NCBI GenBank assembly: GCA_016214565.1
Contig: JACROE010000002.1
Location: forward strand, 212,584-276,583
Direction: 5' to 3'
DNA: 64,000 nucleotides
DNA from: Candidatus Kerfeldbacteria bacterium
GTDB lineage: Bacteria; Patescibacteriota; Patescibacteriia; UBA10025; JAHIVO01
Under the pieces are notes generated by a model. The model did no database searches, was not told the DNA's origin, and saw only the letters and a program-made list of their open reading frames with translations. Positions 21,201 to 36,315 of the stretch are shown piece by piece. The position numbers were made by a program, and so were the translations under genes. Within the stretch, counting starts at the first letter, position 1, and every line of letters begins with the position of its first letter.

Positions 21201-24097
21201 GGCGGCGAAGGATTTACCGTATCGCGGATAGTGACATCACAATAATACCCATCAGTCGTGTTGTAATTGCACACCACGTCCGGTGTGGCAGGAGTATTCA
21301 GCGGTGTGCAATACTGCGCGGTATTGGACCAAACTGATGATGCGCTCTCACCAATCACACCAGTCGAATTTTTCGATTGCGCCCGAAAATCGTAACACGT
21401 CGCCGCGCTTAAACCAGTAAGCGTTATTCCAGTTGCTCCCCCCCAGGTCGTATCAGTCGCCCACTGGGCAGTACCAAATCGCGTACTACCGCCAGCCGAA
21501 GAAAAGTATTGCCAGCTTCCGCCCTGAAATATCTGCATCGCATACTGGGTACTACTCGGATTCAGCCAGGGCGAGGTGGTGGGCGCATTCTGTGGAGTCG
21601 TATTCAATGCTATCTGAAAAGAAGTACTGGTGTTATTGGCGCTCGCGGGATTGCTCGGGGCAGATGGAGTACGCGCTCGAGTATAAATGTCCACGTAATT
21701 GGTAATGTCCGGATCATTAACCGTATTATTTCTTGTGTTCTGTGAAAAAGTTCCTGCCGCGTAGTATGCATTCGGCTTCAAATACGCAAACGCAGAATAC
21801 TCCCCTGAGGCGTAAAATGGCGTTAGTAACGGGATATTTATCCACTGATTGAACGTGAGGCAGCGAGCCTGACCGCCCGAGGATCCATTAGCTACCCAAT
21901 CGCGAGTGCCGATCACGCCATCAGGAAAATTCGTATAAACGGTACTATTAGCCGAGGGTGGATCATCAACGTACCGGATATCGGCAGTTGGCGAATAATT
22001 CCAGCTGGGAGAAAAAGCAAATGTGATTAAGCCAATACAATACCTGGTCGGCTCCGGATCAGAGGCAAAATACGATCGCTGATTGGTATATTCATCACCG
22101 ACCCCCGCCGCCGGCCAAATTTTAATCGATGACCACGTTTCAGAGGTTACCGAGGGTGGATGGATAGCCTTCGCCGCATATGTATAGTCATCTTGTACAT
22201 TACTATAATTTGAAATATAACTGCCGGGTGCCTCCAAACGCTGTACCCGGGCGCGATACCAGACGTGCTTATCTGAGTACTGTGTCAGACTCGTGCTGGT
22301 CTGCAGATTGTCAGTGATGGTACAAATACCCGTCGTGCCGGCTTTTGAAGTGGTAGTACAATTATAGGTAACACCCGTGGTACAAGTGCCCGACCCCCCC
22401 GTCGTCAACGTAGTACAGATTTCGGTCCACGGTCCAGTCGATGAGGTCAGCGACCGCTCCAGACGAAAATTCGTCTCATCATCAAAATCATCATCAATGT
22501 CTATCTCCAGAGTTGAAATACTACTGTCGGATTGGGGATCAACCCGGCTGATTACCGGACGCGGGAAATAAACGATCTCCAGCCAGGCGTACGGCTGGGT
22601 AAGCGGCGTTGTCTGCACCTCAGTACCGGTCCGCACACCCCAATTTGGTCCATAAAATATCTCACTGGGAATATCCAGCTGAAATTGAGTAAGCGCTAAA
22701 GCACCCACCAAACCCAGCGAACTTAATTCGACATCAATAATACGCGTGCAGTTTGCTGGGGCGGCAACACAGTTCTGAGTGGCGCTCGTTGGCAGTCCGG
22801 TGGTGTTAATCAACCCCTCATTGGTCATACTGGAGGTCAGCGCCCAGAGTGCGGAAGGATTGCTTACTGATGTCCATTTGTCCGCACCAGAATAGACCGT
22901 GACGTTATTCCCCTCGGTAAATGTTTGCTCGCCAGCCACGCCGCCAGTGCGGTACATATTGAGATACAATCGTGCTCCCTGGACCTGCGCATCATCAAAG
23001 CCTGACCCACCCGGCTGGTTCGCATCGCCCGTGTAGAAACTTAGGATTTGACGATACTCCCAGCGGGTATCCGGGCATGAGCTACAGCTCTGGGGCGGGC
23101 CCTGCGCTCGAGTCCCCGTCAGCCAATATGCACCAGTGGGCGTGCCATTAAAAGTATAAGTATGGACAACCGGAGACGATGGGTACGCATATGAATCCTG
23201 AAGCTGGCCGTACAATCCAAATGCCTGTGTGCCAAAATACGAATTATCAATAACCAGTGGATACCGGGCATGCGCCAGCCAATCCTCGCCACTCGGGCTG
23301 ATCACTTTCGATATTTCATATACTCGCTCATCAATCTGCGTGATGCGATAAGCAATGTCATAACTGGCCCCCGGATCGGTTTCTGCTAATTCATACATGA
23401 CGGGGGCAGGAGAAATAAAGACCACGTGCTTGGTTGTCGTATCATGAAAAGTAATCGAACCATCCGGTTCTAATTTTGGATACAAGCCGGTTAATACCAA
23501 CTGCTGGGTCAAGGACGGCAGTGTCGCAGCAGTCGTGGCTGAGTCCACAATCAGCTCCTCAATGAGCTTCCCTTTCCCCACTGAATACCGCGCATCAATG
23601 CCAGGATATATATCAGCATAGGTGACCTGGTCCCCGATCGCAGTCCAGACGCTATCCTGAGCACCTCGATAGGTAGTCTCGATCCGCCGTTTGCCATCCG
23701 GACTCTGGTACACAATAAAATTACTACTGCTAACATCATTTTTAAAATACGCTTTCTGAATATTGGTAGTATTTTCAAATGCATACTCGGGTTGCGCCGC
23801 GGGCACCAGCGCGGTATCAATCGGTGCATACTCTCCGGGGTTAGGCGTCAGGTATTGCACTGGCTCCGGAGAAAACATAACCGATGCAGTGCCGTCTTCA
23901 TGAAGTACGGGGTCACTTTTATAACTCACATATTCGAAACCAGACTGATCAAATATCGATTCAGGATTGACGGCGCTATGCTGCTGATCCTTAACCAGTA
24001 TGTGATACCAGCCTAATAAACCGGCCAAGCCAATACTACCGACCAGTGCGGCAATAAATAATATTCGTATAGTGATGTAATGAGAACGGGACATCAT
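12293..24097 (-). CDS. Giant (3934 aa) exported surface protein: N-terminal signal-anchor, FN3-like domains, two 7-bladed Trp-rich beta-propeller arrays, YWTD/NHL-like blades, Cys-rich linkers, beta-helix-like C-terminal region
   Basis: Single uninterrupted ORF. N-terminal TM (IRILFIAALVGSIGLAGLLGWY). FN3-type endings (CYDFRAQSKNSTGVIGESAS). Repeat arrays described separately. Start overlaps the upstream gene (ATGA). Confidence 0.9.
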   Translation of the reverse strand: MMSRSHYITIRILFIAALVGSIGLAGLLGWYHILVKDQQHSAVNPESIFDQSGFEYVSYKSDPVLHEDGTASVMFSPEPVQYLTPNPGEYAPIDTALVPAAQPEYAFENTTNIQKAYFKNDVSSSNFIVYQSPDGKRRIETTYRGAQDSVWTAIGDQVTYADIYPGIDARYSVGKGKLIEELIVDSATTAATLPSLTQQLVLTGLYPKLEPDGSITFHDTTTKHVVFISPAPVMYELAETDPGASYDIAYRITQIDERVYEISKVISPSGEDWLAHARYPLVIDNSYFGTQAFGLYGQLQDSYAYPSSPVVHTYTFNGTPTGAYWLTGTRAQGPPQSCSSCPDTRWEYRQILSFYTGDANQPGGSGFDDAQVQGARLYLNMYRTGGVAGEQTFTEGNNVTVYSGADKWTSVSNPSALWALTSSMTNEGLINTTGLPTSATQNCVAAPANCTRIIDVELSSLGLVGALALTQFQLDIPSEIFYGPNWGVRTGTEVQTTPLTQPYAWLEIVYFPRPVISRVDPQSDSSISTLEIDIDDDFDDETNFRLERSLTSSTGPWTEICTTLTTGGSGTCTTGVTYNCTTTSKAGTTGICTITDNLQTSTSLTQYSDKHVWYRARVQRLEAPGSYISNYSNVQDDYTYAAKAIHPPSVTSETWSSIKIWPAAGVGDEYTNQRSYFASDPEPTRYCIGLITFAFSPSWNYSPTADIRYVDDPPSANSTVYTNFPDGVIGTRDWVANGSSGGQARCLTFNQWINIPLLTPFYASGEYSAFAYLKPNAYYAAGTFSQNTRNNTVNDPDITNYVDIYTRARTPSAPSNPASANNTSTSFQIALNTTPQNAPTTSPWLNPSSTQYAMQIFQGGSWQYFSSAGGSTRFGTAQWATDTTWGGATGITLTGLSAATCYDFRAQSKNSTGVIGESASSVWSNTAQYCTPLNTPATPDVVCNYNTTDGYYCDVTIRDTVNPSPPYFYKVQRSYDGASAWTDVQGYIPGGALGTYNAQNWSQTFQNGQTVRFKNLSCTNATNTRLYFRVYASMTGNNASTTNSAASAVKDDTLPPCAPSAPVLCSILVCNPNKGHNYIKWDWTAPYTRDTEGLYQVDFQSSILYPNITPAGNDPWTQSNLSPNQQYTVTVRGCDNGNASNGNVERCGQWSGSGGPVRTYAAQPNVTVACNHVDGVDDDTDDYYCAVTITEQSPENPSDTTSYRVSYCTRPFADDCEGGTWTALPWETKRWIGSTVKTFNDNIINSWVACSLSHTYQYYKVEVRNSSSEVTPLLLFIPPSDTLPPCEITYQTPNHDSQTTNSLRWLWNAPVGGAPVVDYTGTYNQYCRSTPLAFNTAGTNYIHSSNDGNAGTSDANQRCTISVRARDSRGRLGRSNPLTGSIGAYTSIETVGSISFTDVQTNQISVMANSSGSTFNNLTTPNSGISFENNPSAPGGGGEAGFSNHTTQYITSNSVTDSGLSANRNYCYQARSANADRLVNGTGDINSFVPGAGVTCRYTLAAIPAAPILVRAESGTSANVTVRTTDGNPQGGAGIPETQYALCVTKYDSNGNVEYERYARTDGSIDMSGGNFQCASGDSSGIWATYSQWGSNNGIDVALDPSSKYDFAMKARNGDGPTIVASGCVAGNTCIETSFGPKATLFLVRNNIVGWAWSSNLGWISTNCLNLYNLTGFGFSCGTSEDWGVNTMFEETRDVNPVTGYAWSSSGRSIPEEQWSTVETVNTNKPAQTNSANSSDKNIVIDAFGRVHRVWAEAWPSAGNTKDIFYQRWNGREWVTAAGALGADNISQTSLDSMQPTLVFDENANPHIAWAEKVAGISDYYHIWYLRWNPEAQNGFGAWVAPTGTVYRPGTTNATNEKIDVSTNVITGNLDDLYPSIAIDALNQAHIAFKKSKVGGTYDVYYTEWGGADWVRPNGGPDFDDIANTTSTDHQPSLAVDPTTGYPYVVWGDAANQVLYRYWNGSAWSAEVAVNGATTGVKSPKIVLDRNVTPHIAWATTSGARYITWNGSAWAAADGTVPADTSATYNPGVGGNVSAIDLKVDRQRHPHVMGYESGNPQIIRYRNYDPAANSGAGAWITTSGAYGGGNNDANLEAARRTGFDIRGLAFDIDGEGDPYLLWSESDGLTPNDWNVHYRFWDAGYGEAGVGWITFNTNVCANNTQQACADSFDCKGATCVESAGTPPQTTDWAASWNDVKQPRPGFLHKFAYDSVTAGGPYYWITLGTDWSNSPANADHGVLKVRVSDMTTVGYVDLKAIGGLRPLDAAFDGTAVWVTAYGTNQVYRINPTTLAVEATINLVSCADAHDTDPQCNPEGIDYDPTSGDIYVINQEAGGGGAGGNWWGSISRIDPATNTEVHCDTGLPAGGAPRRCGRCSNSAYATEAACIAVAGTHWGTGRRPVDANIDVTTHSLWTGHVYETSIARLDLNTGTIQSIPLPSGYAFAYYDVVRVNASLYVPLTASSSHPRGQFGIGAVMIIDPVAGSIIDTIEFDHPQYPQGIAYDGRYLWMTAHTGLGNCNNDATILCSAQGSEGTCAIGGAVCDFDYQCSGAGNYCQRAACSSVGGGCSNSQARIFQYEASTMTLVNSYKVSSRDYVMGSQIMYRNNAIWTVTTSGLLSGGGNLVKVAQATSSGHGYGYCYDQAGSSGQRYGVCSDGIGACVADTDCLAGESCVFETCATQSDCPDYAPTGADEQCKAIATASFSGITREVTGWARIMSLKSEGEALGYDDWGWIRLGGTYDDGATRSGRYTLSGTEIDSQQFLGDPDVNPTDVSLYTLFGWGWQASLIPQTHNNSVWLPHVRVTASGRAASDQGDNYGSPSLVVDSIGDPHMAWSEYNSTNNSYQIYYARLKAGEWETANGTAYVPGTTDPQSSRLNVSNINGVDAFWPSLQLSGDRPYIVWQQGGTYDQNGEVFFSYYDDAGGNWTTPEKIDNGGMPDLALDAGSNPHVVYRFGNGNTAEVYYRWKSGGVWIDPDGGVDDIQVSNSLAGSIPEWFPKLTVTQSTPAIPHIVWVNGAQINYRTWNGVNWVTASGQTNTTNLQVNAGVDALDEIVTINGQDPDIALTSAGRPGIVWRDPQFVLYRTWNGTNWVTVSGSTAMTNILVNGVVTGETQRHAQMGGAPTLAIDADDQPHITWADDTEPPAVPDVRYRYWDQESNGGQGAWVTATGDYGIEGGMQNYDDPQLTAGVTADSSTSPSLALDRNANPHIAWNELHYSATACNPANGDADCGGEDPVCLEVSTAPGTYRCASSNVLYTKLSGGAILSGVGWIEFIPASALLGIPYIRTSFGDVYSGENVTLAPPPAGSSQYTATYLIQANGDIQGIPGNYASSQTGLPTSQLQEPGLNPLVTGAGLPFGEKVLSRLDIDSLITDVGGAKNRFGHDLNVLTAGDLANGSRLGTAPVLNGEVYYVNGNAVINSAMTITKGAGGTTGNGLIVIDGDLEINAAITYDNTALTDLSEMPSAAFIVRGNITVNSLVDTLAGVYVAIDRDPDDGVASGIISTGRKNPVAYTVAVSPDDTTVLSTGANTPTSTTASFGVNASGQAIRTFLRYQMPDVPAGAEIRRAYLRFDSTGLTSGGDFTGRIYLMDSNNVGGVNFTNTPNLPLFDSVVSNSVTYDTTAWNTVDSHDSPDITSLVKRFLNDEAYAPTNYIGLVLHEGQATTNQFKTFASQDHLSLAAPVLVIEYAPQRTIYTLADVAADPFDDDAAAWGTGGSWSSNSPCQSVGWYLNNPNRVYLRFAPQSGFTQVPDNAQIVESHLRVQGNDCNSSSAPFELRQGLLEADDMPVIGANPFEYAMTQDVSEVAEDVAAGAWGTGSVHWLTDSTSLIQSWIDRAGYTVGNHIGIRLRRGGNETFAALNETRPINPATSQLHIDYQTPLYVSGLFIASGYNFDRTYTKNLEGAEQIVYDGRVVANTPPGLADFTRALPLYQRVVP
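14432..15655 (-). repeat. Protein-level tandem repeat array 2: second set of seven blades with the same Trp-rich consensus
   Basis: Residues approx. 2815-3222. Examples are DPHMAWSEYNSTNNSYQIYYARLKAGEW, PHIVWVNGAQINYRTWNGVNW, PGIVWRDPQFVLYRTWNGTNW and PHITWADD...VRYRYWDQ. Confidence 0.7.
17642..18886 (-). repeat. Protein-level tandem repeat array 1: seven approx. 55-aa Trp-rich blades (consensus PS-hA-hD-x3-PHIAW-x8-12-hYY-x-W-NG-x-W)
   Basis: Residues approx. 1738-2152 of the giant protein. Examples are PHIAWAEKVAGISDYYHIWYLRWNPEAQNGFGAW, AHIAFKKSKVGGTYDVYYTEWGGADW and YPYVVWGDAANQVLYRYWNGSAW. Confidence 0.7.
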
Positions 24098-25566
24098 TGG
24101 GGTAGCGGATAACTAATCTCCAGATGGGGTTCAACGGTCGGAACATTCCCAATCACGTATGCTCCGGAAAATTTTCCATCAGTCACTGGAACAGCCGTGG
24201 TTGTCAATGCAATACTCAGCAGTAGGTGAACCCGAGCGCCAGCAATCACTGATTCGGAAAGCGGCACTGATGTTATACACGCCGCACTATCGGTCCGACA
24301 GATTGTGGTTGTTTTCGGATTGTCTGTCGGGAATGCCGCCAAGCTAATCCGGTCAAGCAATGTACCTCCAGTCGAAGCAAGTCGAGTAACTATACTAGGC
24401 AAGACTTGATCATATACACTCGCAATCGGTTGAATTGTCGCATCTGATAGAGGCGCCTCTTCACTGCTGACCTGACCGGATTGATGCAGCCCCAGTACCA
24501 GTCGGACAAGGGGTGCTCCCTCACCAGCAAACGTGTTGAGCGCATCACCAACATTAACGAATGAGAGTAAACTGACAAATGAAAGTGATGGTGCAGCACG
24601 CAGTAACCCATTGTCATCGGGTAACCGATAAGCACCAATTTTATATTTTTGTGCACGTGTATCTAATTGCGGCGCAGACGAATTAATGCGCCAAACTTGG
24701 CCAGTCACTGGCGTCGAGTACGGCGAACGATATTGATGTTCCAAAACAACTGGGCGGCTAACGAGCGATATCCATTCGGCTCCCGCCTCGCCCAGCGAAT
24801 ATTGAAGCGCGTCCTGCGCATAGGTAAGCCGCACATCGGTAGTCAATTCCCCTGACTGGAGATCAAGCTCCTCATCGGTCATAGGAATAAATAGCGTTGG
24901 TGAGATCGTAGAAAAAACAAGCTCGTGAGTATCGGCATCCTGCAACATGCCCTGTGCATCTCCCAGTCTACCCCAGGATAATCCATTCAGGGCTAATCGT
25001 GGCTGCCAGGACCATGTCTCAACGGTAGGATTATGAAATATTGTCTGTTCAATCAAAACATCATGGTCAAGGCGAAACTCAACATCAGTTTCTGGAGCGA
25101 CCCCCTGATAGCGCACGACTGCGTCACTCAGCTCCCAAGCGCCAGCTTGAGCCTGAGGATATTGGATAGTGAAAGATCGCCCTTCGGTAACCTCAACCGT
25201 CACTGATGGCACTCCTTGATCGATCCAAAAACGCGTAGAAAAAATATTAGCAGTATTCACAAAACCACCCTCTGATTCAATCCAGGACGAGTCAATAGGC
25301 ACTAGCGACCCTTCAGTTGTACGGTATTGCATAGCAAATGGATACACGGATCGTATAAATGTGCCTGAGGAACTCTCTTGATCAATATAATTCTTCCCGG
25401 CCTCCAGCATCGTGTGATCCAAAATAATAGCCTGGGATGACTGAGCATTATTCAATGCTCCATCATATAGCAAATAATACCAACCGATGAAGCCGAGTAA
25501 AAGCACAGCCAGAACTATCAGAAAAACGTAGTGTATTTTAGAAAATGAAATCATAATCCGCGACAC
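24094..25566 (-). CDS. Exported hypothetical protein (490 aa) with N-terminal signal-anchor, sharing an N-terminal domain pattern with the giant protein
   Basis: TM IHYVFLIVLAVLLLGFIGWYYLL. The stop overlaps the giant-gene start (ATGA). The start overlaps the 791-aa gene by 16 nt. Confidence 0.7.
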   Translation of the reverse strand: MSRIMISFSKIHYVFLIVLAVLLLGFIGWYYLLYDGALNNAQSSQAIILDHTMLEAGKNYIDQESSSGTFIRSVYPFAMQYRTTEGSLVPIDSSWIESEGGFVNTANIFSTRFWIDQGVPSVTVEVTEGRSFTIQYPQAQAGAWELSDAVVRYQGVAPETDVEFRLDHDVLIEQTIFHNPTVETWSWQPRLALNGLSWGRLGDAQGMLQDADTHELVFSTISPTLFIPMTDEELDLQSGELTTDVRLTYAQDALQYSLGEAGAEWISLVSRPVVLEHQYRSPYSTPVTGQVWRINSSAPQLDTRAQKYKIGAYRLPDDNGLLRAAPSLSFVSLLSFVNVGDALNTFAGEGAPLVRLVLGLHQSGQVSSEEAPLSDATIQPIASVYDQVLPSIVTRLASTGGTLLDRISLAAFPTDNPKTTTICRTDSAACITSVPLSESVIAGARVHLLLSIALTTTAVPVTDGKFSGAYVIGNVPTVEPHLEISYPLPQ

Positions 25567-27926
25567 GTTATCTGGCTAATTTTGCTATTACTATCCAGGG
25601 TAACACTGGCGACAAACTGACCATCAGGACAATCGGCAATACCGCCAGTTACGGGCACCGACGCGGTTAGACTTGACCAGGTATTACCGACCGTTTCAAT
25701 GTCTGCCCCTATCCGTAGGTCACCTGATGCGCAGGCACCACCCGCCAAATCACTACAGGCACCATTATTGGTACACGGTCGATTATAGTATACCGCTCCC
25801 CCCGCTTTACAATAACCATTTTTCAGGGTCAATGATCCGGAGATGCGCATATGTCCTGCCTGCGTCTGATTGATGACGCTGCATGTTTCTGCTGTCGGAC
25901 AATGCCAATCATACAGACACTGCCGGGTTGTCGTGATTGAACACGTGCCTGTGGTATGAGCAAATTGGACGACAGTACTGAGATCCGGATGGTCAGTCGT
26001 ACCGGTTATAAAAACTTTCGTCAGCTTTAGAGGGCGAGTGCCACCCGCATTACAATTTGCATCGCAGGCTGAGAGCGACCAGAGATTGGCTCCATCAAAA
26101 ACTAATGATGAATCCCAATAATTGGTCGAGAGTACCTCCCCAAATTCTTTCATCTCATCAGTTGCCACAGAAATCCGCAGCAGGCTCGCTTTGTTAATCC
26201 CACCCTGGGTACCCGCTAACCAGAGATACTGCCCATCGAATTCCATGGCCACTCGATAGGATGCTAATTCCTTTGGATACCCTGCCATAATCATACCATC
26301 GGACACGCGAACTTTTGAAATTGATTTCGGACCAGCGACGCTACTATTTGATATGACCCACATATAGATCCCATCAAAATACATTTTCCACGGATTAGCT
26401 ACGCCTGTTGCGTAGCGTGCCGTCACCGCGCCTGTGGCTGGATCTATTTTAATTAAATTATTCGGATTCAATCGGCATGATCCTGATACGCACGAAGCAT
26501 CAACCCGACACGAATCAAAAGTTGTCGGCGCGGTCGAGCCGCACAGCGCCGGAGTGATTACCCATATAGCATTATCGCCAAAAGTGATATCAGCCGGCTT
26601 CATAAAGAAGCCATCACTATTGAGGCGATTCAGGTTCGTGCCGGTGCCATGCGTCCCAATCGGATACGTTCCAATCACTTGGCAATTACGATCAACCTTA
26701 CTCACATCTCCACCCAGCCAATTAGCCGTCCAAATATATGGCTCGCCTGCTTCGGTAGCGATGGTCATCCGGGCTGGGTTGTCACCCCAGGTAGCGCCAT
26801 TCGGCCGACTTGAGTCAGAGGTGACACAGCGAGCGATCGTTTGCCCACTATGCGGATCAAACTTGAGTACAGAATTATCGCCCGTGCCGGTGCTTGTTAT
26901 CCAGAGATACTGCCCGTCATACTCCATAGCGCTGGGTGTGGCAGCGGCGCCCTGAACACGATAGCTGGCAATCCGCGCACCATCAGAGACACGAATCTTG
27001 AATACATTATTACCCGCGGCATCAGGCATAATATTACTGGCCCACACATACGCCCCATCAAATGCGAGACTGGGTTGATAGGCACCCTGGATAGCTCCAT
27101 CTGAAACAGAATAATAACCAATCCGCTTCGCCTGCACAAAAGGTATGCGCGAGGATTGGATATACGTCGCCACAAATCGATCGGCAATCAATTCGGCTCT
27201 GGCGCCCAAACGACCATTAAAATACCCTGCCCACCCGTCAGCGGTATTAGTTCCCGCTACCGCTGGTGCCGTAAGCGATTGAGTCGTCGCATATATACCA
27301 GTACCGCTGACGCTTTCACCGCGCACACCGACATTTGCCGAGCTTTCACCGCGGATCGCCCAACCCGTGGGCATATCAATAATGCCATAGATGCCGGCTT
27401 GACCAGTGGCTCCCGCGTCACCATAAATACCAACACTATCAACGCTATAGGCACGAACTGCCGATCCTGATGTCGGCGTATTTACATCTCCAATTTGCAC
27501 CGTCCCCTCATCAACCACTACCCGATACCCAGCGGCCGGAGTCAGAGTACCAATGCCCAGCCAATTTACTAATGCATCAACAAATAGCGTATCGGTATCA
27601 ACAGTCAGTTTATCAGCAAAGACCGACGGTGTGGCTAGGTGTATTCCAGTACCGCGCACATCAAGAGCGCGTAATGGATCAAAATTAAGCGACGTCTGTT
27701 CGTTCGGATTATAGCTCGGGTCAAGCAGCAGATCGCCAGCCTTCGCCTGATTTTCAGCACCCGTCGTCAGTGGTGCCGGGAATTCTTGTTGTGGCGGGGG
27801 AATCGACGGCTCGCGCCACTCAGCACCGACAGGCGTGCTCCACAACAAACCAAAGCTCAGCATTAAAATAACCACGCCCAAAAGGCTATACAACTGAGTT
27901 TGATTCTTTTTAAATAAATTACCCAT
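25551..27926 (-). CDS. Large exported protein, paralog A (791 aa): conserved N-module, GxYG/GxRG Gly-rich repeats, YWTD/NHL-like beta-propeller blades, C-terminal Cys-loop
   Basis: N-terminal TM, then PPPQQ...QAKAGDLLLDP...LTVDTDTLFVD. Blades include FDGAYVWASN...VFKIRVSDG, YDGQYLWITS...VLKFDPHSG, FDGIYMWVIS, FDGQYLWLAG and FDGANLW. Ends CPDGQFVASVTLDSNSKISQITCRGL. Confidence 0.85.
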   Translation of the reverse strand: MGNLFKKNQTQLYSLLGVVILMLSFGLLWSTPVGAEWREPSIPPPQQEFPAPLTTGAENQAKAGDLLLDPSYNPNEQTSLNFDPLRALDVRGTGIHLATPSVFADKLTVDTDTLFVDALVNWLGIGTLTPAAGYRVVVDEGTVQIGDVNTPTSGSAVRAYSVDSVGIYGDAGATGQAGIYGIIDMPTGWAIRGESSANVGVRGESVSGTGIYATTQSLTAPAVAGTNTADGWAGYFNGRLGARAELIADRFVATYIQSSRIPFVQAKRIGYYSVSDGAIQGAYQPSLAFDGAYVWASNIMPDAAGNNVFKIRVSDGARIASYRVQGAAATPSAMEYDGQYLWITSTGTGDNSVLKFDPHSGQTIARCVTSDSSRPNGATWGDNPARMTIATEAGEPYIWTANWLGGDVSKVDRNCQVIGTYPIGTHGTGTNLNRLNSDGFFMKPADITFGDNAIWVITPALCGSTAPTTFDSCRVDASCVSGSCRLNPNNLIKIDPATGAVTARYATGVANPWKMYFDGIYMWVISNSSVAGPKSISKVRVSDGMIMAGYPKELASYRVAMEFDGQYLWLAGTQGGINKASLLRISVATDEMKEFGEVLSTNYWDSSLVFDGANLWSLSACDANCNAGGTRPLKLTKVFITGTTDHPDLSTVVQFAHTTGTCSITTTRQCLYDWHCPTAETCSVINQTQAGHMRISGSLTLKNGYCKAGGAVYYNRPCTNNGACSDLAGGACASGDLRIGADIETVGNTWSSLTASVPVTGGIADCPDGQFVASVTLDSNSKISQITCRGL

Positions 27927-27934
27927 GATAATGA

Positions 27935-30900
27935 TTATAATGGACGACAGTGTAGCGAATTAGTCGTAATATCAAATCCTTTTGCAAATTGTCCGTCCTG
28001 ACACGAAGTGGAAAACCCGCGTACGTCATCGCTGCTACCGCCCCACACATTTGCGATCACTTGAAAATCATTCGTCACAATCAATTCTCTTCCGATTGAC
28101 GCCTGGCCTGACGAAAAAATACTCCCCGCTTGATTACGACCCGGGATGGTCGTCTGAAGATTAGCTAAACCCTCAAGGTCGGGATGAGAAAACCCCGTGC
28201 CTGAAAAAAACTGATGCAAATTATATCCATCACAATTATTTGTCGTTTGGTTCACCCAGATGCTGCTTCCGTCAAAGGTAAGACTATTCGGATTGCAGTA
28301 GTACCCATATTGAGTGCCATCAAGGTACTGGCTGGTACCGGCATTGATCCGATTCAGGTAGGCGGCATTCTCACGAACTGACTCATCAATATCAGAAGCG
28401 CTGGAACACTCCGGATCAGGACGCCCGCTGCAACCCGGCGATCCAGGGGCACCATCATAGTCACACAATCCATTCCCATCATTATCCACCCGATCAGCGC
28501 ACTCAATATCAGTGGTGGTGCCATAGTAATCACTACTATCGGTCTCATGGGCATCATCGACTGAGGCACATTTCGTATCTGCCGGGAGAGCGCCGCAACC
28601 CCGATCACATTGCCCGTTGCCATCATTATCGATACCATCCTCGCACTCACGTGTGTAGTTCGCCCGCTCCTGGACTGCCCAGATGTGCGTCCCGTCAAAA
28701 GTGAGGGCACTCACATTATTAGCCGTGGCACTACATGTCCCTCCGCCCGTACATTGGCTTGTCGCCGTGCAAAAAAGATTCGCCCGAGTCCCACCTGAAC
28801 AGCGACCTGGTATATTCATCGTCGGAATACGCGCCGCTACTGATCCATCACTGATGCGTACTTTATATACGCTGTTACCATCCGTATCTCGATTCCGCGC
28901 ACCAAACCAAAGGTAGGTACCATCAAATAATATTGAATATAAATTATCGTCCACGTTATACGCGGTAGAAATCGCATAGGTACTCAATATAGCGCCTGTC
29001 GTGCGGTCAATCTTTGAGTAACTATTGCGTCCTGCGCTAGTGGCAGTTTTCCGTGTCACCCAGATATATTCGCCATCGAAGGCAAGATATTTTGGCCCAT
29101 TAGCCACGGCAAAGGAACTCGCCGTGCAATTCGATCCACTACAGCTAATGGGGTCAATTCGTTTCAGGGTATTGGTACTATCATCACTGATCCAGAGGTA
29201 TTGCCCATCAAAGATCATATCATTACCATCTTCATTTGAGCTGGTAGTGTAATCATAATCACCGATCAGTACGCCATCGCTCGCGCGGATTTGCGCCAGC
29301 TCAGTATTTGATCCGCCGGCGCTGCCATGCGTTACCCAGATTGACTGTCCATCAAACGCTAAGTATGACGGATAGTAGCCGCTGAAGTAATCGCCGACCT
29401 TCTGTCCGTCGCTGGCACGGTACTTACTAATAGTATTCCCGGCGTTATTTGATGACCAAAGATAAGTGCCGTCATACAGGGTATCCTGAGAAAATGAACC
29501 CTTGGGGATGTAGGTGATCGTCGTATACGGCGCATCAATCATATTGCGACTGATTGAGCTGGCTACCCCGTGGCTGCCCCAAACATAATCAACCGGTCCT
29601 GATTCGCGATCAAAATCAAAGTCTGCCATTCCATCGGGGACTTCGTAGCTATGGACGATCGTTCCGGTGGTATTTATTTTGAAAAAATCATAATAATTAT
29701 GCGCCCATACATACGGACCGCCCGATGATGTATCGTCATATTCTACCTTTTCAAGATTAGTAGTCACTGACGCGTAATTGGTGAATGTCTCAGTGGTCGG
29801 ATTAAAACTCGCCAATCCTTCATTGCCCTGATACTTGCTGTAATGAGATGACTTCCCTATCCATACTTTCCCGTCGCCCCAAGCCAATGCGTGCGGTTCG
29901 CTGGCCGGACCAGGACAATATACTTTTTGTAGCGCGGTATTAGTCGGGTCAGCTGCAGAGAATTTAGCAATTCCTTCACCACGGTAGAGTAACGTGGGTG
30001 TCATCGAATCTAGTCCGTCAAATGCTACCCAAATAGTGGGGCTGGATGGGTCGGTAGTATTTGGCTGAAGCGTGATACCGTGGATAGCATTGACCGACGC
30101 CATAACCAGCCGCTCATCACCAGCCGGATAGGCACCCGTAGGACTGGTGCCGGGTGCCTGGGTTTGATTGATACATTCTGTATCGCCAGGTGTCCACGTG
30201 CCACCATTAGCCTGACAGGTTGCTTGAGTCGTGTAGCTCGCGTTGCTGCAGATCCCGCTATCAATATTCCCATCCCCATCATTATCGAGCCGATCGGAGC
30301 AACGTTTCGGATCATAAGAAAGACACTGATCACCTGTGTTCGGTGCCAGTTTGAAATTGGTATAAGTCTGATCCGCAATGCGAAAACGGGAAATTGAATA
30401 ATCGCGGCTCAAACCCGCATCATTGATAGTCCATATATATGGTCCACCAATGGTGTATGGATCATAAATCAGATCAGTTGGACCGTCATCAGAGGCCGAC
30501 GCATGCGCGCCCACGGCATAATGGGTGGCTGTATGTGTCGGATCATTAGGATCAACGCGAGATATGCCGAGAGCGTCATCCCAATTATTGGCTACCCAGA
30601 TATACCCGCCGCCGAGTATCATCTCACTGGTACCATGAGCTTGTGTGCCGCTGCTGTTCTCTAGTATAAATTCTTCGCTAATAGCGCCGTTCGAAGGATC
30701 AAGCAGAAGAAAATAGGGTGAGTTGTCCCACGATTCACCAATTAATTGCCAAATCCAGGTTCCGTCAAAGAGCATAACAGACGGATCGACAATTTTGCTC
30801 GAAGCGAGATCTCGCAATTCTTGCCCAGCCGTATACGGAAATTGAGAATTCTGTAATCGATTTGGCATAAATCCGCGAGCATAGCTCTCCTGTGAACTAT

Positions 30901-31627
30901 ACACCTGCTGGGCAAAATATCCCGCCCACGCACCGACGCCAGTCGCCTGGCCGTAAACGCCCGCTCGCTTAATCGCAGCTGCTCGATCGAGTGCGGCATT
31001 CGAGCTCCCTACCACAGCCGAGCTGGCTAGGCTGTCCGCCCGGATACCAGTGCCCGAGCTTGTATTCAAACCATACACACCGGGGCCAGCAGTACCGATG
31101 CCGCGTACTGCCGCCTGACCATCCTGCTGAGTCGTGCCCAGCGCACCATAATTCAGAGCGCTGCTCGTGACTAAGGCTGACCCAGTCACACCAGCGGACT
31201 GAGTGCCAATCAATAGACCGCCATCCAATTCAAGTAATGTCGCCGGATCATTAAGGCCAATGCCTACCCGATGTGTATTTCCATCTACATATAATGTATC
31301 GGTGTCTACCTGCAGTGTACCGGCGGGAGCTACTTCAAAATTATTAATAAACACGTCGCGCGTTCCACGCACCTCAAGTGGATACATAAACGAAGGTAGT
31401 TCGCCATAAGGATTGTAATACGGATCAAGCAGCAACCATCCGCGTTTTGCCTGACTATCGCGACTCGTGTTGAGCGGTGCATACACGTTTCCGGCTGGCG
31501 GCTGGGCTGACGGCGGATTCCAAACGGCCTTGACCGAAGCAACCCAGAGCAAATAAATTGCAGCGCTAACTACAATCAAGAGAGCCCCAGCAATGAATGG
31601 ATGTATTGTATTGATTCGACGAGTCAT
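27935..31627 (-). CDS. Large exported protein, paralog B (1230 aa): same N-module and blades, plus Asp-rich Ca-binding-like Cys/Asp stretches
   Basis: PPSAQPP...QAKRGWLLLDP...LQVDTDTLYVD. Blades include FDGTYLWSSNNAGNTISKYRASDG, FDGQSIWVTHG, FDGQYLWISDD, FDGEYIWVTR, FDGTYLWFGAR and FDGTHIWAVQ. DNDGNG motifs. Ends CQDGQFAKGFDITTNSLHCRPL. Confidence 0.85.
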   Translation of the reverse strand: MTRRINTIHPFIAGALLIVVSAAIYLLWVASVKAVWNPPSAQPPAGNVYAPLNTSRDSQAKRGWLLLDPYYNPYGELPSFMYPLEVRGTRDVFINNFEVAPAGTLQVDTDTLYVDGNTHRVGIGLNDPATLLELDGGLLIGTQSAGVTGSALVTSSALNYGALGTTQQDGQAAVRGIGTAGPGVYGLNTSSGTGIRADSLASSAVVGSSNAALDRAAAIKRAGVYGQATGVGAWAGYFAQQVYSSQESYARGFMPNRLQNSQFPYTAGQELRDLASSKIVDPSVMLFDGTWIWQLIGESWDNSPYFLLLDPSNGAISEEFILENSSGTQAHGTSEMILGGGYIWVANNWDDALGISRVDPNDPTHTATHYAVGAHASASDDGPTDLIYDPYTIGGPYIWTINDAGLSRDYSISRFRIADQTYTNFKLAPNTGDQCLSYDPKRCSDRLDNDGDGNIDSGICSNASYTTQATCQANGGTWTPGDTECINQTQAPGTSPTGAYPAGDERLVMASVNAIHGITLQPNTTDPSSPTIWVAFDGLDSMTPTLLYRGEGIAKFSAADPTNTALQKVYCPGPASEPHALAWGDGKVWIGKSSHYSKYQGNEGLASFNPTTETFTNYASVTTNLEKVEYDDTSSGGPYVWAHNYYDFFKINTTGTIVHSYEVPDGMADFDFDRESGPVDYVWGSHGVASSISRNMIDAPYTTITYIPKGSFSQDTLYDGTYLWSSNNAGNTISKYRASDGQKVGDYFSGYYPSYLAFDGQSIWVTHGSAGGSNTELAQIRASDGVLIGDYDYTTSSNEDGNDMIFDGQYLWISDDSTNTLKRIDPISCSGSNCTASSFAVANGPKYLAFDGEYIWVTRKTATSAGRNSYSKIDRTTGAILSTYAISTAYNVDDNLYSILFDGTYLWFGARNRDTDGNSVYKVRISDGSVAARIPTMNIPGRCSGGTRANLFCTATSQCTGGGTCSATANNVSALTFDGTHIWAVQERANYTRECEDGIDNDGNGQCDRGCGALPADTKCASVDDAHETDSSDYYGTTTDIECADRVDNDGNGLCDYDGAPGSPGCSGRPDPECSSASDIDESVRENAAYLNRINAGTSQYLDGTQYGYYCNPNSLTFDGSSIWVNQTTNNCDGYNLHQFFSGTGFSHPDLEGLANLQTTIPGRNQAGSIFSSGQASIGRELIVTNDFQVIANVWGGSSDDVRGFSTSCQDGQFAKGFDITTNSLHCRPL

Positions 31628-31630
31628 ATA

Positions 31631-34600
31631 TTATATTCCACGACAATCAATTCTTACTACCCCGCCGGCGGTATTCACCGTCACATTAGTGATATAGTGA
31701 CCATTCGGGCAGGTCTGGGTGCCTGGTGCCAAAACGCCCAAACCCGATCGATACACTTGCCCATTTGCCGCACCGGCGTAGAGATAGCCATTTGCAGTTT
31801 TGAGCAAGGTGTTGATTTGCGGCGTCCCGGACAAGGTGGTGAGCAGCGACCAGCTCGATCCATTATCAGTCGAGCGGAAAATCTTTCCTCCGGCAGTGCC
31901 GGCATACAGATACCCATTCGTTGTCTGCATTAATGCATTGACCATCGTGGTACCAGTCAGCGCGGTCTTCGTCCAATTAACCCCGTTATTGATTGAACGA
32001 AAAACACCGCCCGTGTCTGTCCCAGCATAGAGATATCCATTCGCTGCTCTTGTCATCGACTTGATTGCCTCAGCCGGTGAGAGCGTAGCTAAAAGCGTCC
32101 AATTCAAGCCGGAATCAACCGATTGTAGAATCTGTCCATTATCCACACCAGCCAGAATCGTCCCATTCGGTAAATCAGTAAATGCATAAATGATTCCGTT
32201 TGTGCTTGAGTACACGTCAGACCAAGACGCCCCGTTATCAGTAGAACGAGATATGCGAAATGCTCCCGTGTGAATATTGGTGCTCCGCGCAACGTAAATG
32301 ATGCCGTTGCTCCCCTGAAAGATAGCGTCAAATTTTGCCTGCCCGGCTGACAGCGCACCCCCCGCTTGCCAGGTCGCCCCATTAGTATCCGAATAATACA
32401 TCGTGGTAATCACGCCCTGCCCAGCAAATAGCCGCGTTCCACTGCGAAGCATGACTTGCACCCGATCACCCGGCGGAGTCGCCGCCGGCTGGGTCCAGGT
32501 CGTCCCCTGATTACTTGATAAATGTATCCAGCGCACACTGCCATTAACGCCAGCGACCAACGTATTAGCGGCTGACTCTACCATTGCATTCACCGAAGTT
32601 GCATTAGCGAGCGCTCCCATAGCCGGCCACGTACTATCGTCAAAATTGGTAAGGACATCGCCCGCGCCAACCTTTTGCCAACTGTTGCCCAGAGCATCCA
32701 CATTGCCATCAATTTGCACATCATTCCCCACCCGAGCATCTCCGGTAATGCTATAGCTCCCCCGTTGCCATGTCGGCACCGTCGTAGACTGCAGCGACAA
32801 TGCTTCAGCAAATGACTGGTCGCCATAGCCCGTCCCGGCAAATAATTTAACAACGCCGGCAGAGCCGGAATTTCCAGTACCCGTGGACCACAAATAGGAA
32901 CCATCAAATTCTAAACTCTGTGGCGCGAAGGCAAGCGGAATATCCAAGCGATTGTTCGGATCCGCGGCCTGCAATCGGCTGAGACTCTGACCCGCATAAT
33001 TTGCGGTCCACACATGCGTCCCATCAAAGGCAATCCCTACTGGTTCATTACCAGTCGCGAAAGTCCCGACGGCCTGTGGCAGCGCGAAGCACCCGCCATT
33101 ACCCGCGCAGTCAGTGTCAGTCGAGCAGGTAATTGTCTGATCCAGCGAGCAACGTTTATTATTGGTGAGGTAATATTGAGTGACGGAATTCGTGCCGCGA
33201 TTGGCTACCCAATAATGAACGTTGTCATACACAATATCAACTGGATTTAACCCAACTAATCCGGTCCAGAGCGCTGCTTGGCGTGTGGCAGGATTCATAT
33301 TTACGACCGCATTCTCTGCCGAAGAAACCGCCCAGAGAAAACTGCCGTTGTAAATAATTTTCCCTAACGAATTTGCGGCATTGGAAACATCGGTGCGGCT
33401 CAATTCAGCGCAGGTGTTGCTCAAATTGATAATCTCACCGGTGCCCTGGGCAGATACCCAATAACTTCGGCCATCAAAAGCGATACTGACCGGCTTGGTG
33501 CCACTGGCAAAAACTTTTGAGCAAACGATTGCGCCAGAATACAAATTCACCTTGTAAACGGTATCGGCATCACGCGCGGTCACCCAAAAATAATTACCAT
33601 CATGAAATCCCTCGGTCATACCAGCACCAAGGGTTGCCTGATATGCCACAAATCCGTCGCTGGCTCGGACTTTCCACAATTCTGAACCACGCGACAGCCA
33701 CACGTACGTATTGTCATGATACAAAATCGAAAAACCAATCTTTGAATAATCAAACGTTTGCGCAACCGACCCAGTACTACTCTCGAGTCCAACCACGGTG
33801 CGACCATACCAGCTCGGCACCCACACGCGATTGACTGATGGATCAAATAGTATATCGCGATACGACCGATTGCTGTTTGCGGGGAAATGCGACAAGGCGC
33901 TGGGATTATTTGCCGGGAACCGATCGACATAACCAGCCGGTGCTCCACTCGTGGTCGCTACCCAAATATTTGTACCATCATAGGTGATCGCCTGCGGTCC
34001 AACGGGCCCCGCATACGTCGCAATCCTCGAGGAGACAGTCCCCGAACCAATATTGATGTAATAAGCGCCATCACTGCCAGTACCACTATCATCGGCCGAG
34101 GCCCACATGTAATGACGGTTACCATCATAAACTAAATCAGTTGGTCCCGGCACGCTGAAACGAGTATAATCTGACGCACTGATGGTCGCATCACCCCCGC
34201 CTGGATTGACTGAGTTTATCCGATATACTGCATCATTATTACTAAAAGCGAGCCATAAGCTATTAGTCGTAGTATCAAAAGTAATGGCGCGAGGTCCCTG
34301 TGAATACGGCGCGGTCATCGATTCAGCATGTTCTATATCATAGCGGGCAATCGGCTGCCAGTTCACGCTATCATCTGTATAATCGGAAATTCGGAATTGC
34401 TCGAGCCGATCGTGATAATCTCGTCCAAAACAATCTCCACCGGCATGCAACGCCCATAAAATATCAGAATCGTTTGGATCCTGAACAATAAAACCATACG
34501 GACATGTGCCATGAGCATCCGCATCAAGCACGCTTCTTGATTCCGCAATCCCCGATGCAATGTTGACGCGAGCGATTTTTCCCGAGTACGTATCAGATGC

Positions 34601-35587
34601 CTGCCAAATATATCCATTCGGCTGATCATACATGAGATCTTGAGCTGGACCGAGTGTGTAGCGAGCAGTTACCTCGCCGGTTCCTTTGTCTACACGCAAC
34701 AAATCGTTATGGCCATTTCCCGCCTGACCGATCCAAAGCCATTTCCCATCAGTGGCCATGCGCGCCGGGTACAATTCAGGAAATAATTGCGCAGCAATTT
34801 GACCTTCGGTATAGGGGATCAGCGATTCAGGCTCTGTAGTTCGAAGAATCTTTGCAGCTGAAACAATCTCATTGGACTCGAGCAACCCAGTAAAGTACCC
34901 AGCCCAGCGGTTGCTCAAGTTCAAACTTGTTCCATAGACACCGATACCCGTCGAGCTAAATCCACCTACCGCACTATACAAAGGGGTAACAGCTGTATGC
35001 GCCCCCTCAAGAGCAGCACTCAAGCTTGCTACTGCCCACATACCATAGCCCGACGTGCTGCTCGACACCCCCTGCACTCCGTACGTCGCTCCATACCCAT
35101 AGAGTGCCTCACTATCAGCACTCACCGCGCGAACACCCGCTTCATCCAAGCCAGTCACGCGCATTCGTCCACTCGGGATTTGCAATATTGCCGAGTCTCC
35201 CGACACGCAGCTATTCACACAGACGCGATTATTGAGAGGGTCAACAAACAATGTTTCAGAAGAATCGTTAACTTTCAAGGTATTGTCGATGATACCCTCA
35301 GTAGTACGAGCGCCACTGCCGAGCACCTCTAACTGATAGGCATATGGTGAAGTTTGATCATCTGTTCCGAAACGTAGTGCACCGCTTTTTACCTGATTTG
35401 ACTCGTCAATTCTCAGTAATTCTGGGGTATTGTCTTCAGGCGGCGGAGCACTAGGGTCAGGTAAGGCATCGGCAAATCCGCCATTAATAAAGAAAATACA
35501 GCCAGCAATTACAAAGGAAATAAAAAATAGGCTAAAATTAGCCAATTTATTATACTGACGCTTAGTTTTCTTATTGAAAATACTCAC
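31631..35587 (-). CDS. Large exported protein, paralog C (1318 aa): same N-module, beta-propeller blades, and C-terminal BNR/Asp-box propeller
   Basis: Signal peptide (...FINGGFA/DA). PDPSAPPP...QVKSGALRFG...SETLFVDP. Blades include TDGKWLWIG, FDGRSYWVS, FDGTHVW and FDGSYLW. Ends CPNGHYITNVTVNTAGGVVRIDCRGI. Confidence 0.85.
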   Translation of the reverse strand: MSIFNKKTKRQYNKLANFSLFFISFVIAGCIFFINGGFADALPDPSAPPPEDNTPELLRIDESNQVKSGALRFGTDDQTSPYAYQLEVLGSGARTTEGIIDNTLKVNDSSETLFVDPLNNRVCVNSCVSGDSAILQIPSGRMRVTGLDEAGVRAVSADSEALYGYGATYGVQGVSSSTSGYGMWAVASLSAALEGAHTAVTPLYSAVGGFSSTGIGVYGTSLNLSNRWAGYFTGLLESNEIVSAAKILRTTEPESLIPYTEGQIAAQLFPELYPARMATDGKWLWIGQAGNGHNDLLRVDKGTGEVTARYTLGPAQDLMYDQPNGYIWQASDTYSGKIARVNIASGIAESRSVLDADAHGTCPYGFIVQDPNDSDILWALHAGGDCFGRDYHDRLEQFRISDYTDDSVNWQPIARYDIEHAESMTAPYSQGPRAITFDTTTNSLWLAFSNNDAVYRINSVNPGGGDATISASDYTRFSVPGPTDLVYDGNRHYMWASADDSGTGSDGAYYINIGSGTVSSRIATYAGPVGPQAITYDGTNIWVATTSGAPAGYVDRFPANNPSALSHFPANSNRSYRDILFDPSVNRVWVPSWYGRTVVGLESSTGSVAQTFDYSKIGFSILYHDNTYVWLSRGSELWKVRASDGFVAYQATLGAGMTEGFHDGNYFWVTARDADTVYKVNLYSGAIVCSKVFASGTKPVSIAFDGRSYWVSAQGTGEIINLSNTCAELSRTDVSNAANSLGKIIYNGSFLWAVSSAENAVVNMNPATRQAALWTGLVGLNPVDIVYDNVHYWVANRGTNSVTQYYLTNNKRCSLDQTITCSTDTDCAGNGGCFALPQAVGTFATGNEPVGIAFDGTHVWTANYAGQSLSRLQAADPNNRLDIPLAFAPQSLEFDGSYLWSTGTGNSGSAGVVKLFAGTGYGDQSFAEALSLQSTTVPTWQRGSYSITGDARVGNDVQIDGNVDALGNSWQKVGAGDVLTNFDDSTWPAMGALANATSVNAMVESAANTLVAGVNGSVRWIHLSSNQGTTWTQPAATPPGDRVQVMLRSGTRLFAGQGVITTMYYSDTNGATWQAGGALSAGQAKFDAIFQGSNGIIYVARSTNIHTGAFRISRSTDNGASWSDVYSSTNGIIYAFTDLPNGTILAGVDNGQILQSVDSGLNWTLLATLSPAEAIKSMTRAANGYLYAGTDTGGVFRSINNGVNWTKTALTGTTMVNALMQTTNGYLYAGTAGGKIFRSTDNGSSWSLLTTLSGTPQINTLLKTANGYLYAGAANGQVYRSGLGVLAPGTQTCPNGHYITNVTVNTAGGVVRIDCRGI
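31748..32527 (-). repeat. BNR/Asp-box repeat array (S-x-D-x-G-x-T/S-W) at the C-terminus of the 1318-aa protein
   Basis: SSNQGTTW, SDTNGATW, STDNGASW, SVDSGLNW, SINNGVNW and STDNGSSW recur at approx. 45-aa spacing, alternating with GY(L/I)YAG motifs. Confidence 0.7.
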
Positions 35588-35736: not shown

Positions 35737-36288
35737 TTGCCATTCAGTCAACTAATGAGGCAAAATAAAAAAATGAAAAACATTACCAATAAAGAAGACC
35801 TCTTTGGCTGGTCCCGTAACGCAGTCTATGGGGCTTTTGTAGCATTTTTGCTCATATTAGGTGTCGCTTCCACCGCATATTTTGTTGGACGCCATAATGT
35901 AAGACAGGCTCAGTCCCCGATCGCAGTTATCGAACTCTCTGATCGGTCACCGCAAGTTATGGGAGCTAAAATTTTTAACCTCAATGGTGTCGTCATCGAA
36001 AACAATTCATCTGACAACGAACTTATTATACAAACGACATACCGCGATAATACCGGAGCGCTTCAACAGAAGCAAATTACGGTCAGCATTGATCCTGATC
36101 TTGAAATTATTCGCTGGGATGTCACTGATACTGCTGGACAAACAGAAAGTGCACAACGCGTTCGTATAACATTGAATGATATTCAAGCGGGAAGCCAGGT
36201 AACCATTCAAACAGAAGACGACATCCAAACTAATACCCAGGTAAATGCTCAGGCCATAACTGAGATGATTACCCCATTTACTAATTAA
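35737..36288 (+). CDS. Hypothetical membrane-anchored protein (183 aa; true start may be the internal Met at 35773)
   Basis: Single N-terminal TM (VYGAFVAFLLILGVASTAYFV) followed by a Thr/Gln-rich soluble domain. GAGG 12 nt upstream of the 35773 ATG. Confidence 0.55.
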   Translation: MPFSQLMRQNKKMKNITNKEDLFGWSRNAVYGAFVAFLLILGVASTAYFVGRHNVRQAQSPIAVIELSDRSPQVMGAKIFNLNGVVIENNSSDNELIIQTTYRDNTGALQQKQITVSIDPDLEIIRWDVTDTAGQTESAQRVRITLNDIQAGSQVTIQTEDDIQTNTQVNAQAITEMITPFTN

Positions 36289-36315
36289 TTTTTTAATAAC
36301 TAACGTATATATCCT

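Follow-up and report, generated by a model that had tools for sequence, protein, structure and literature searches.

Three beta-propeller proteins with shared N- and C-terminal modules, encoded at the head of a type IV pilus operon in Candidatus Kerfeldbacteria

Within a 64-kb stretch of DNA from Candidatus Kerfeldbacteria (Patescibacteria), which we analyzed as a whole and refer to as the window, three large proteins of 791, 1230 and 1318 amino acids (A791, B1230 and C1318; positions 25551-35587, minus strand) follow a common design, in which a Sec signal peptide is followed by a conserved N-terminal module (N-module), at least one beta-propeller, variable in number and type, and a conserved C-terminal module (C-module). 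Judged by their sequences, they belong to an undescribed, lineage-restricted protein family and gene arrangement of Patescibacteria, and we found no description of the family in the searchable literature. The proteins are deposited as MBI5037319-21, two of them named "hypothetical" and one (C1318) "exo-alpha-sialidase." Their genes lie back to back with gaps of 3 and 8 nucleotides and continue, by overlapping open reading frames (ORFs), into D490 (490 amino acids) and then E3934 (3934 amino acids), and such tight spacing and overlap fit a single operon.

25551-27926, minus strand: A791 ORF, 791 amino acids (aa)
27935-31627, minus strand: B1230 ORF, 1230 aa
31631-35587, minus strand: C1318 ORF, 1318 aa

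A conserved N-terminal module

A preliminary description of this DNA had proposed that the three proteins begin in the same way, and this likeness survives formal alignment statistics. In composition-corrected BLASTP searches, A791 matched B1230 at an E-value of 2e-29 (405 aa) and C1318 at 2e-18, and B1230 matched C1318 at 5e-14, with similarity running over about 400 residues. The part common to all three, the N-module, spans about 235 aa and is made up of a Pro-rich box, a QxKxG box, a repeat of phage-tail-fibre type that is present in a single copy per protein, Gly-rich GxYG micro-repeats and a WAGYF box. All of the boxes quoted in the preliminary description were present in our alignments, but RVGIG is exact in B1230 only, the equivalent residues being WLGIG in A791 and RVCVN in C1318. 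The alignments also revealed additional boxes, namely the invariant WAGYF and F-x-P-x-x-L-Q-x-S-x-x-P-[FY]-T, and placed the end of the module at about residue 262-275. It starts at the mature N terminus, where the motif [AE]-W-x-E-P-x-x-x-P-P is found. When we scanned all 468 ORFs of the window with the module profile, no ORF other than these three scored below an E-value of 0.3.

27141-27821, minus strand: A791 N-module (aa 36-262; repeat LTVDTDTLFVD...WLGIG), from BLASTP, alignments and a hidden Markov model (HMM; 4e-85)
30803-31528, minus strand: B1230 N-module (aa 34-275), from BLASTP, alignment and HMM (1.9e-84)
34778-35464, minus strand: C1318 N-module (aa ~42-270), from BLASTP, alignment and HMM (1.4e-73)

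We modeled the N-module with AlphaFold2 (AF2). Given a 56-sequence alignment, the N-module of B1230 was predicted with a mean predicted local distance difference test score (pLDDT) of 76.6 as an elongated structure with eight short strands and little regular secondary structure, while in a full-length A791 model built from a 22-sequence alignment the N-module stayed below a pLDDT of 50. Neither the N-module nor the C-module has a family in Pfam, NCBIfam or PHROGs or is covered by any Protein Data Bank sequence, and PHROG 5906 matches the tail-fibre-type repeat of the N-module.

The Gly-rich GxYG segment and WAGYF box also occur by themselves in large proteins of Chloroflexia, Planctomycetales and other phyla, with stand-alone examples in four retrieved loci (L009, 8453-10786; L010, 9275-11347; L047, 2270-4057; L058, 3097-4926). 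In those proteins the part after WAGYF is either an "IDHPLDPxNKxLxHSxVESPEM" segment or VGIGT repeats. Pfam gave no match for these Gly-rich/WAGYF relatives of other phyla, nor for relatives that carry multiple copies of the tail-fibre-type repeat.

A C-terminal module that ends in a two-cysteine loop

All three proteins end with two cysteines close to the C terminus, arranged as C766-x21-C788-RGL in A791, C1209-x17-C1227-RPL in B1230 and C1293-x21-C1315-RGI in C1318. BLAST comparison of these tails alone gave weak matches, the best being A791 with C1318 at 3e-4. Since the tails are too short for pairwise statistics, we instead built an HMM from the last 130 aa of homologues, taken from other organisms only, and scanned it against the same 468 ORFs. 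It matched only the trio, with domain E-values of 5e-35 for B1230, 2e-20 for A791, and 5e-14 and 1e-11 for two parts of C1318, which upholds the proposal of a shared two-Cys tail. The loop of about 20 residues that had been described is real, but it is the last part of a longer conserved unit of about 90-125 aa, which opens with an SGTGxGHxDL box after the last propeller blade and continues with a QxGxIxIxGxAxVGxDLxVxxDxxVxxNxWGG box before the Cys loop. In C1318, a propeller of about 300 aa, similar to BNR and sortilin propellers, interrupts the C-module between the NxW box and the loop.

25554-26006, minus strand: A791 C-module (aa 641-791; two Cys-rich insertions; loop C766...C788, RGL-COOH), HMM 1.9e-20
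27938-28309, minus strand: B1230 C-module (aa 1107-1230; SGTGFSHPDL box, QAGSIFSSGQASIGRELIVTNDFQVIANVWGG box, loop C1209-x17-C1227-RPL), HMM 4.8e-35
32642-32932, minus strand: C1318 C-module, first part (aa ~886-982; AGTGYGDQSF box, QRGSYSITGDARVGNDVQIDGNVDALGNSW box), HMM 4.6e-14, profile positions 16-106
31634-31732, minus strand: C1318 terminal loop, C1293-x21-C1315-RGI-COOH, from sequence and HMM

In the full-length AF2 model of A791, strands 770-777 and 783-790 form a hairpin between C766 and C788. Across 81 distinct sequences, the terminus consists of Ile or Leu (69 sequences), any residue, the Cys by which the sequences were selected, Arg (65 sequences), Pro or Gly (54 sequences) and a final Leu (78 sequences).

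We considered whether this terminus could be a known kind of processing signal. A sorting signal of the sortase or exosortase type (LPXTG, PEP-CTERM) was rejected because the proteins end three residues past the Cys and have no hydrophobic segment. A CaaX box was rejected as well, given Arg at position -3 in 65/81 sequences and Pro or Gly at position -2 in 54/81. An M48 peptidase is encoded nearby, and we also rejected CaaX processing by this enzyme, since the motif is wrong for it and the LemA-M48 pair, though conserved as a neighbour, is not a specific partner. We judged a connection of the M48 peptidase with the C-terminal Cys motif to be unlikely.

Signal peptides, export and cysteine content

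The N termini of the three proteins have the properties of Sec signal peptides. Throughout the family these are 28-68 aa long (median, 37), with a K/R-rich n-region of about 13-15 aa and a signal peptidase I (AxA) site that has Ala at position -1 in 69 of 78 sequences and A, V, T or S at position -3 in 72 of 78.

27822-27926, minus strand: A791 signal peptide (aa 1-35, ending VGA|EW), from sequence and an AF2 helix at 7-29
31529-31627, minus strand: B1230 signal peptide (aa 1-33, ending VKA|VW), from sequence and family profile
35465-35587, minus strand: C1318 signal peptide (aa 1 to ~41, FADA|LP), from sequence and family profile

It had been suggested that the C-terminal disulfide loop recalls the pilin D-region, which in type IVa pilins is likewise a two-Cys C-terminal loop a few residues from the end. 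We find this resemblance to be superficial, as the loop of the trio is unrelated in length and sequence, and the analogy does not hold for the proteins as a whole: they have long Sec signals, no prepilin motif, and a Pro-rich stretch in place of the pilin helix. A motif scan found no G-F-x-x-x-E prepilin motif in A791, B1230 or C1318, and in the AF2 model of A791 the hydrophobic helix (7-29) runs into a proline-rich, nonhelical stretch and not into a pilin helix. With no prepilin leader, no Glu5 and no alpha-1 helix by motif scan and AF2, we rejected the possibility that these proteins are pilins or minor pilins. A lipoprotein signal in C1318 was rejected too, as its I-A-G-C sequence sits in the middle of the h-region and is not conserved in orthologues.

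The number of cysteines is even in 70 of 77 mature family members, with 18, 24 and 12 in A791, B1230 and C1318, respectively. Even counts point to fully disulfide-bonded extracellular proteins and to an intramolecular bond that closes the terminal loop.

The signal peptides of C1318 and its orthologues (C-type proteins) share an h-region motif, [ST]-K-W-A-[IF]-F-S-L-F-F-C, and such conservation is unusual in a segment presumed to be cleaved. C1318 carries the motif at aa 14-24 (KLANFSLFF, compared with KWAIFSLFFC).

Variable propeller heads between conserved ends

Between the two modules lie the heads. The AF2 model of A791 contains a confident beta-propeller at residues 263-640 (pLDDT mostly 75-90), and Foldseek matched it to generic seven- or eight-bladed propellers (YncE, BtuG, BamB and WD40) at E-values of about 1e-12.

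26007-27140, minus strand: A791 beta-propeller head (aa 263-640, FDGxYxW blades), from AF2 and Foldseek
28310-30802, minus strand: B1230 variable head (aa 276-1106; FDGxYxW blades, DNDGDG repeats, 4-Cys motifs), from sequence comparison
32933-34777, minus strand: C1318 variable head (aa ~271-885, propeller blades), from sequence comparison
31733-32641, minus strand: C1318 inserted BNR/sortilin-like propeller (aa ~983-1285), Pfam Sortilin-Vps10 6e-9 and BNR_2 4e-8

The preliminary description pictured conserved ends around variable propeller heads, and comparison of orthologues agrees with this picture. Pairwise identity among 22 A-type orthologues averages 44% in the N-module and 42% in the C-module, compared with 31% in the propeller. 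Whole domains also come and go: the BNR/sortilin propeller is present in C1318 and in its orthologues P0025 and P0071 and missing from C-type orthologues of 690-700 aa, and B-type proteins range from 656 to 2109 aa with alternative C-proximal segments. We conclude that divergence is faster in the heads than in the ends and that the heads acquire or shed entire domains. The deposited name of C1318, exo-alpha-sialidase, is based solely on the BNR-type repeats of its inserted propeller, and the region around aa 1010-1250 gave only BNR/Asp-box and sortilin-type repeat matches that are near threshold.

Two further features of these regions are worth recording. A four-Cys motif of the approximate form C-x7-9-C-x5-C-x4-5-C recurs in the propeller regions of the four large proteins of the operon (A791, 662-682; B1230, 943-965; C1318, 813-833; E3934, 2155-2174), and A791 and C1318 have it in the exact form C-x7-C-x5-C-x5-C. 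In addition, B1230 has acidic double-disulfide repeats of the DNDGDG type. NCBIfam NF033662 matches two stretches (1e-6), the one with given coordinates being aa ~441-457, and two more such stretches are visible by inspection near aa 995-1066 (window ~28430-30305, minus strand). These repeats are probably calcium binding.

An ancient family of three types in a fixed order

To see how far the modules extend beyond the window, we queried 1.84 billion representative proteins with a profile built from the three N-modules and obtained 1664 matches at E < 1e-3, 67 of them at E < 1e-30. About 80 proteins hold the whole N-module directly after a signal peptide. The remaining matches cover profile positions 58-113 only, repeatedly, and belong to tail-fibre-like proteins built of "LxVDTNTLFVDxxNNRVGIGT" repeats.

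The two modules occur together. A C-x-x-[LIV]-COOH end is present in 64 of the 67 listed proteins with a full N-module (CRPL in 29, CRGL in 9, CRSL in 4, and others), and of the three exceptions two look truncated and the third extends seven residues past the tail. The whole loop is found in 55 of these 67, with an inter-Cys spacing of 21 residues in 30 proteins and 17 in 10. On the same list, only 1 of 79 true nonmembers has such an end, six other tailed proteins being members whose N-module match is split. Conversely, every ORF with a C-module match in 613 kb of retrieved loci (29/29) also carries a strong N-module match.

Clustering of the N-modules yielded three clades of 21, 27 and 35 sequences, and these coincide with three styles of tail. 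The A-type tail reads C-x-x-G-x-F-[IV]-K-G-[IV]-x-[LI]-D...I-x-C-R-[GE]-L, the C-type tail reads C-P-x-G-H-F-[VI]-x-N-I...I-E-C-R-P-L, and the B-type tail, C-D-x-G-[EQ]-F-x-K-G...C-R-P-L, has a shorter loop; some B-type proteins are without the first half of the loop and still keep C-R-x-L. Given that the clades match the tail types, the N- and C-modules have diverged together, and we see no sign that modules were shuffled between types.

We recovered related loci from a species-level genome collection and from JGI metagenomes (L001-L005, L016 and L018, plus duplicates). Because these were found with the A-type alignment, through the peptide GWAGYF[DN]G, their number is an undercount. All of the recovered loci are Patescibacteria-like, including two labelled "Gammaproteobacteria," a label that their gene content contradicts. 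Both modules are kept in the orthologous loci, and the order C-B-A, followed by a giant gene of the E type (3100-3900 aa), holds in all 8 loci, the window included, that reach as far as the giant gene. In the three loci that reach far enough (the window, L002 and L005), pilM stands directly after the giant gene. A, B and C are thus, as their clades and fixed order indicate, three old orthologous groups and not recent duplicates, which overturns the earlier proposal of a locally diversifying family of paralogues.

The operon and its surroundings

The preliminary description had raised a link to pili. Gene position supports such a link, as the trio stands at the head of a type IV pilus operon.

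24094-25566, minus strand: D490, downstream in the same operon; membrane-anchored, Cys-rich
12293-24097, minus strand: E3934 giant, downstream in the same operon; membrane-anchored, Cys-rich
3450-12206, minus strand: type IV pilus genes pilM, pilN-like, pilO, a gene for an fn3 protein, pilB, pilC and a prepilin gene, from Pfam, NCBIfam and a prepilin motif scan
35737-40535, plus strand: divergent genes for a 183-aa membrane protein, LemA and an M48 (HtpX/Ste24-family) peptidase, with ClpB also on that side

The prepilin motif scan of the window found a single motif, G-F-T-L-I-E, in the pilin gene at 3450-3902, and in the window annotation the pilus operon has no secretin gene. D490 and E3934 have no Pfam match. 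The first ~390 residues of E3934 have a paralogue in D490 (BLASTP 7e-12), and both proteins have an N-terminal membrane anchor. The D gene is peculiar to the window, related loci carrying the giant gene without it, and the giant has a conserved C terminus (...VYDGRVVANTPPGLxDFxxALPxYxRVxP).

On the other side of the trio, the genes for the 183-aa protein, LemA and the M48 peptidase are also divergent neighbours in L001, L002, L004 and L005, with ClpB beyond LemA-M48 in L001 and L005. Farther away, the window holds a type IV secretion-like cluster at 46638-53003 (minus strand), which encodes an SLT transglycosylase fused to a type IV secretion system (T4SS) pilin domain, a second T4SS-pilin protein, a VirB4/TraG-like ATPase and a PD40-like propeller protein. 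At 55465-60052 (minus strand), functions resembling those of pyruvate phosphate dikinase are spread across three ORFs, one with PPDK_N alone and two that each have a PEP-utilizers mobile domain.

Discussion

Patescibacteria are thought to live attached to other microbes. To our knowledge, little has been learned of how they recognize hosts and keep hold of them except in one cultivated lineage. The reading of the trio that we favor, and regard as reasonably probable, is that its members are exported, disulfide-rich adhesins or fibres coexpressed with the type IV pilus, whose conserved ends serve assembly or docking and whose propellers are the binding heads.

Under this reading, the proteins would be exported by Sec, cleaved by signal peptidase I and then oxidized, as their even Cys counts suggest, and outside the cell they would act as attachment proteins or fibres working with the pilus of a presumably host-dependent bacterium. 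The N- and C-modules, which evolve slowly, would be the shared part for assembly or docking, and ligands would be bound by the propeller heads, which evolve faster and swap domains. Since the entry and exit strands of a closed propeller adjoin, both modules should leave the head on one side, like a stalk. The terminal disulfide may staple the last beta-hairpin, and the invariant Arg together with the carboxylate of the C-terminal Leu could take part in a conserved contact, either inside the stalk or to a partner.

Two precedents make attachment a plausible function. In the saccharibacterium TM7x, the propeller protein PilX2, which has a noncanonical signal peptide, is needed for pilus-mediated host binding (PMC11623550), and Bdellovibrio recognizes its prey with MAT fibres, which have a signal peptide and combine an invariant N-terminal domain with adhesive tips of diverse kinds (PMC10769870). 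PilX2 of Nanosynbacter lyticus TM7x comes from the same superphylum and is likewise a beta-propeller protein of a pilus locus with a non-PilD signal and a role in host binding (PMC11623550). Compared by description only, however, PilX2 is a pilin-like "lollipop" that has a hydrophobic helix at the N terminus and an RCC1-type propeller at the C terminus, whereas the trio has an AxA-cleavable signal, a Pro-rich fibre-like module and a conserved C-terminal tail. Besides pilus-associated propeller adhesins, the surface fibres that the trio most resembles are the MAT fibres of Bdellovibrio bacteriovorus (Bd2133, Bd1334, Bd3182 and others). The trio differs from both in that its variable part is central, its C-R-x-L terminus is invariant and its members form a fixed set of three, and a Pfam scan found no match in it to Peptidase_S74, the C-terminal intramolecular chaperone of the S74 subgroup of MAT and phage fibres. 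Phage tail fibres themselves offer a narrower likeness. The trio holds one copy of the repeat for which relatives with 4-25 copies dominate the weaker profile matches, and the structural neighbours of the N-module in BFVD are tail fibres, by weak fold matches, but the remaining architecture is not phage-like.

The closest comparison among pilus proteins is with PilY1/PilC, which are large, Sec-exported, nonpilin beta-propeller proteins whose genes accompany those of the pilus and for which binding to surfaces or hosts has been proposed (PMC11525922 and PMC7541494). As in the PilY1/PilC proteins of Pseudomonas, Neisseria and Myxococcus, the trio is of Sec type, has beta-propellers and is encoded in a type IV pilus gene cluster, with pilM, pilN-like, pilO, pilB, pilC and pilA on the same strand, an arrangement kept in L002 and L005. 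One could therefore imagine the trio as PilY1-like subunits of the pilus tip, nonpilin proteins carried on the pilus whose C-terminal loop or strand docks into pilins so that the propellers sit at the tip, and we rate this as unlikely. It would account for the position of the trio at the head of the pilus operon and for the combination of propellers with Sec, and not prepilin, signals that PilY1 also has; the need for PilX2 in host binding by the saccharibacterial pilus is in keeping with it, and a strictly conserved free C terminus would suit a docking strand. However, Pfam finds no Neisseria_PilC match in the trio at E <= 0.1, neither the operon nor the rest of the 64-kb window offers minor pilins from which to build a tip complex, and three proteins of 800-1300 aa together with one of 3900 aa would make a very bulky tip. 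The N-module moreover resembles a fibre shaft rather than a pilin-binding domain, and in PilY1 it is the N-terminal region that varies and the C-terminal propeller that is conserved, whereas in the trio the propellers vary and both ends are conserved.

We also weighed a more specific architecture, a heterotrimeric fibre in which an A, a B and a C chain contribute their N- and C-modules to a single stalk that carries three different heads. With exactly one gene per type, in fixed order in all loci and tightly coupled, a 1:1:1 assembly comes readily to mind; the N-module repeat is of the kind typically found in the trimeric tail fibres of phages, trimeric fibres are also its best structural neighbours, and the monomer model improved from poor only with a deep alignment. 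Yet homotrimers or monomers account for the same data, the fold matches are weak, and the N-modules differ between types in length and indels, so we hold such a C-B-A heterotrimer, with its [IL]-x-C-R-[PG]-L-COOH ends docked to the type IV pilus or the giant protein, to be improbable. If it existed, such a fibre would be a host-recognition device with three heads and a new kind of docking signal, peculiar to ultra-small episymbiotic bacteria. It seems more doubtful still that the trio are parts of the pilus machine or envelope and no adhesins at all, such as a collar or a conduit that crosses the wall or S-layer of a secretin-less bacterium. The fixed, stoichiometric-looking set of genes beside pilMNO and the operon without a secretin gene would fit, whereas the heads of orthologues vary strongly in length and in the domains they contain, as is typical of surfaces that bind ligands and unusual in the parts of a machine. 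Finally, there is next to no chance that the shared boxes are a low-complexity artefact of Gly-, Pro- or Cys-rich composition. The N-module does consist in part of Gly-rich micro-repeats, a submodule that also occurs alone in unrelated phyla, but composition-corrected BLASTP reaches 2e-29, the profiles give E-values of 1e-73 to 1e-85 (N-module) and 1e-11 to 5e-35 (C-module), the tail accompanies the N-module in 64/67 proteins, and the gene order is kept in independent genomes; on these grounds we consider chance resemblance refuted.

Several observations weigh against our preferred reading of the trio as adhesins or fibres that work with the pilus. The link to the pilus is one of gene order alone, and since the recovered loci come from related Patescibacteria, the synteny may partly reflect shared ancestry. 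The prepilin motif scan found no minor pilins in the operon or the window, and a tblastn search of the N-module against 50,697 phage records gave no match.

Taken as adhesins or fibres, the trio extends what is known of propeller adhesins associated with pili and of surface fibres whose bases are conserved and whose binding domains vary, and introduces no new principle. The two modules, which are otherwise unannotated, can serve as profiles in metagenome searches for such proteins, and the terminal C-R-x-L, the two cysteines and the trio as a set are concrete targets for mutagenesis and multimer modelling. For the biology of these bacteria, our finding defines a candidate attachment apparatus encoded with the pilus, consisting of a trio of propeller proteins with common ends and a giant protein.

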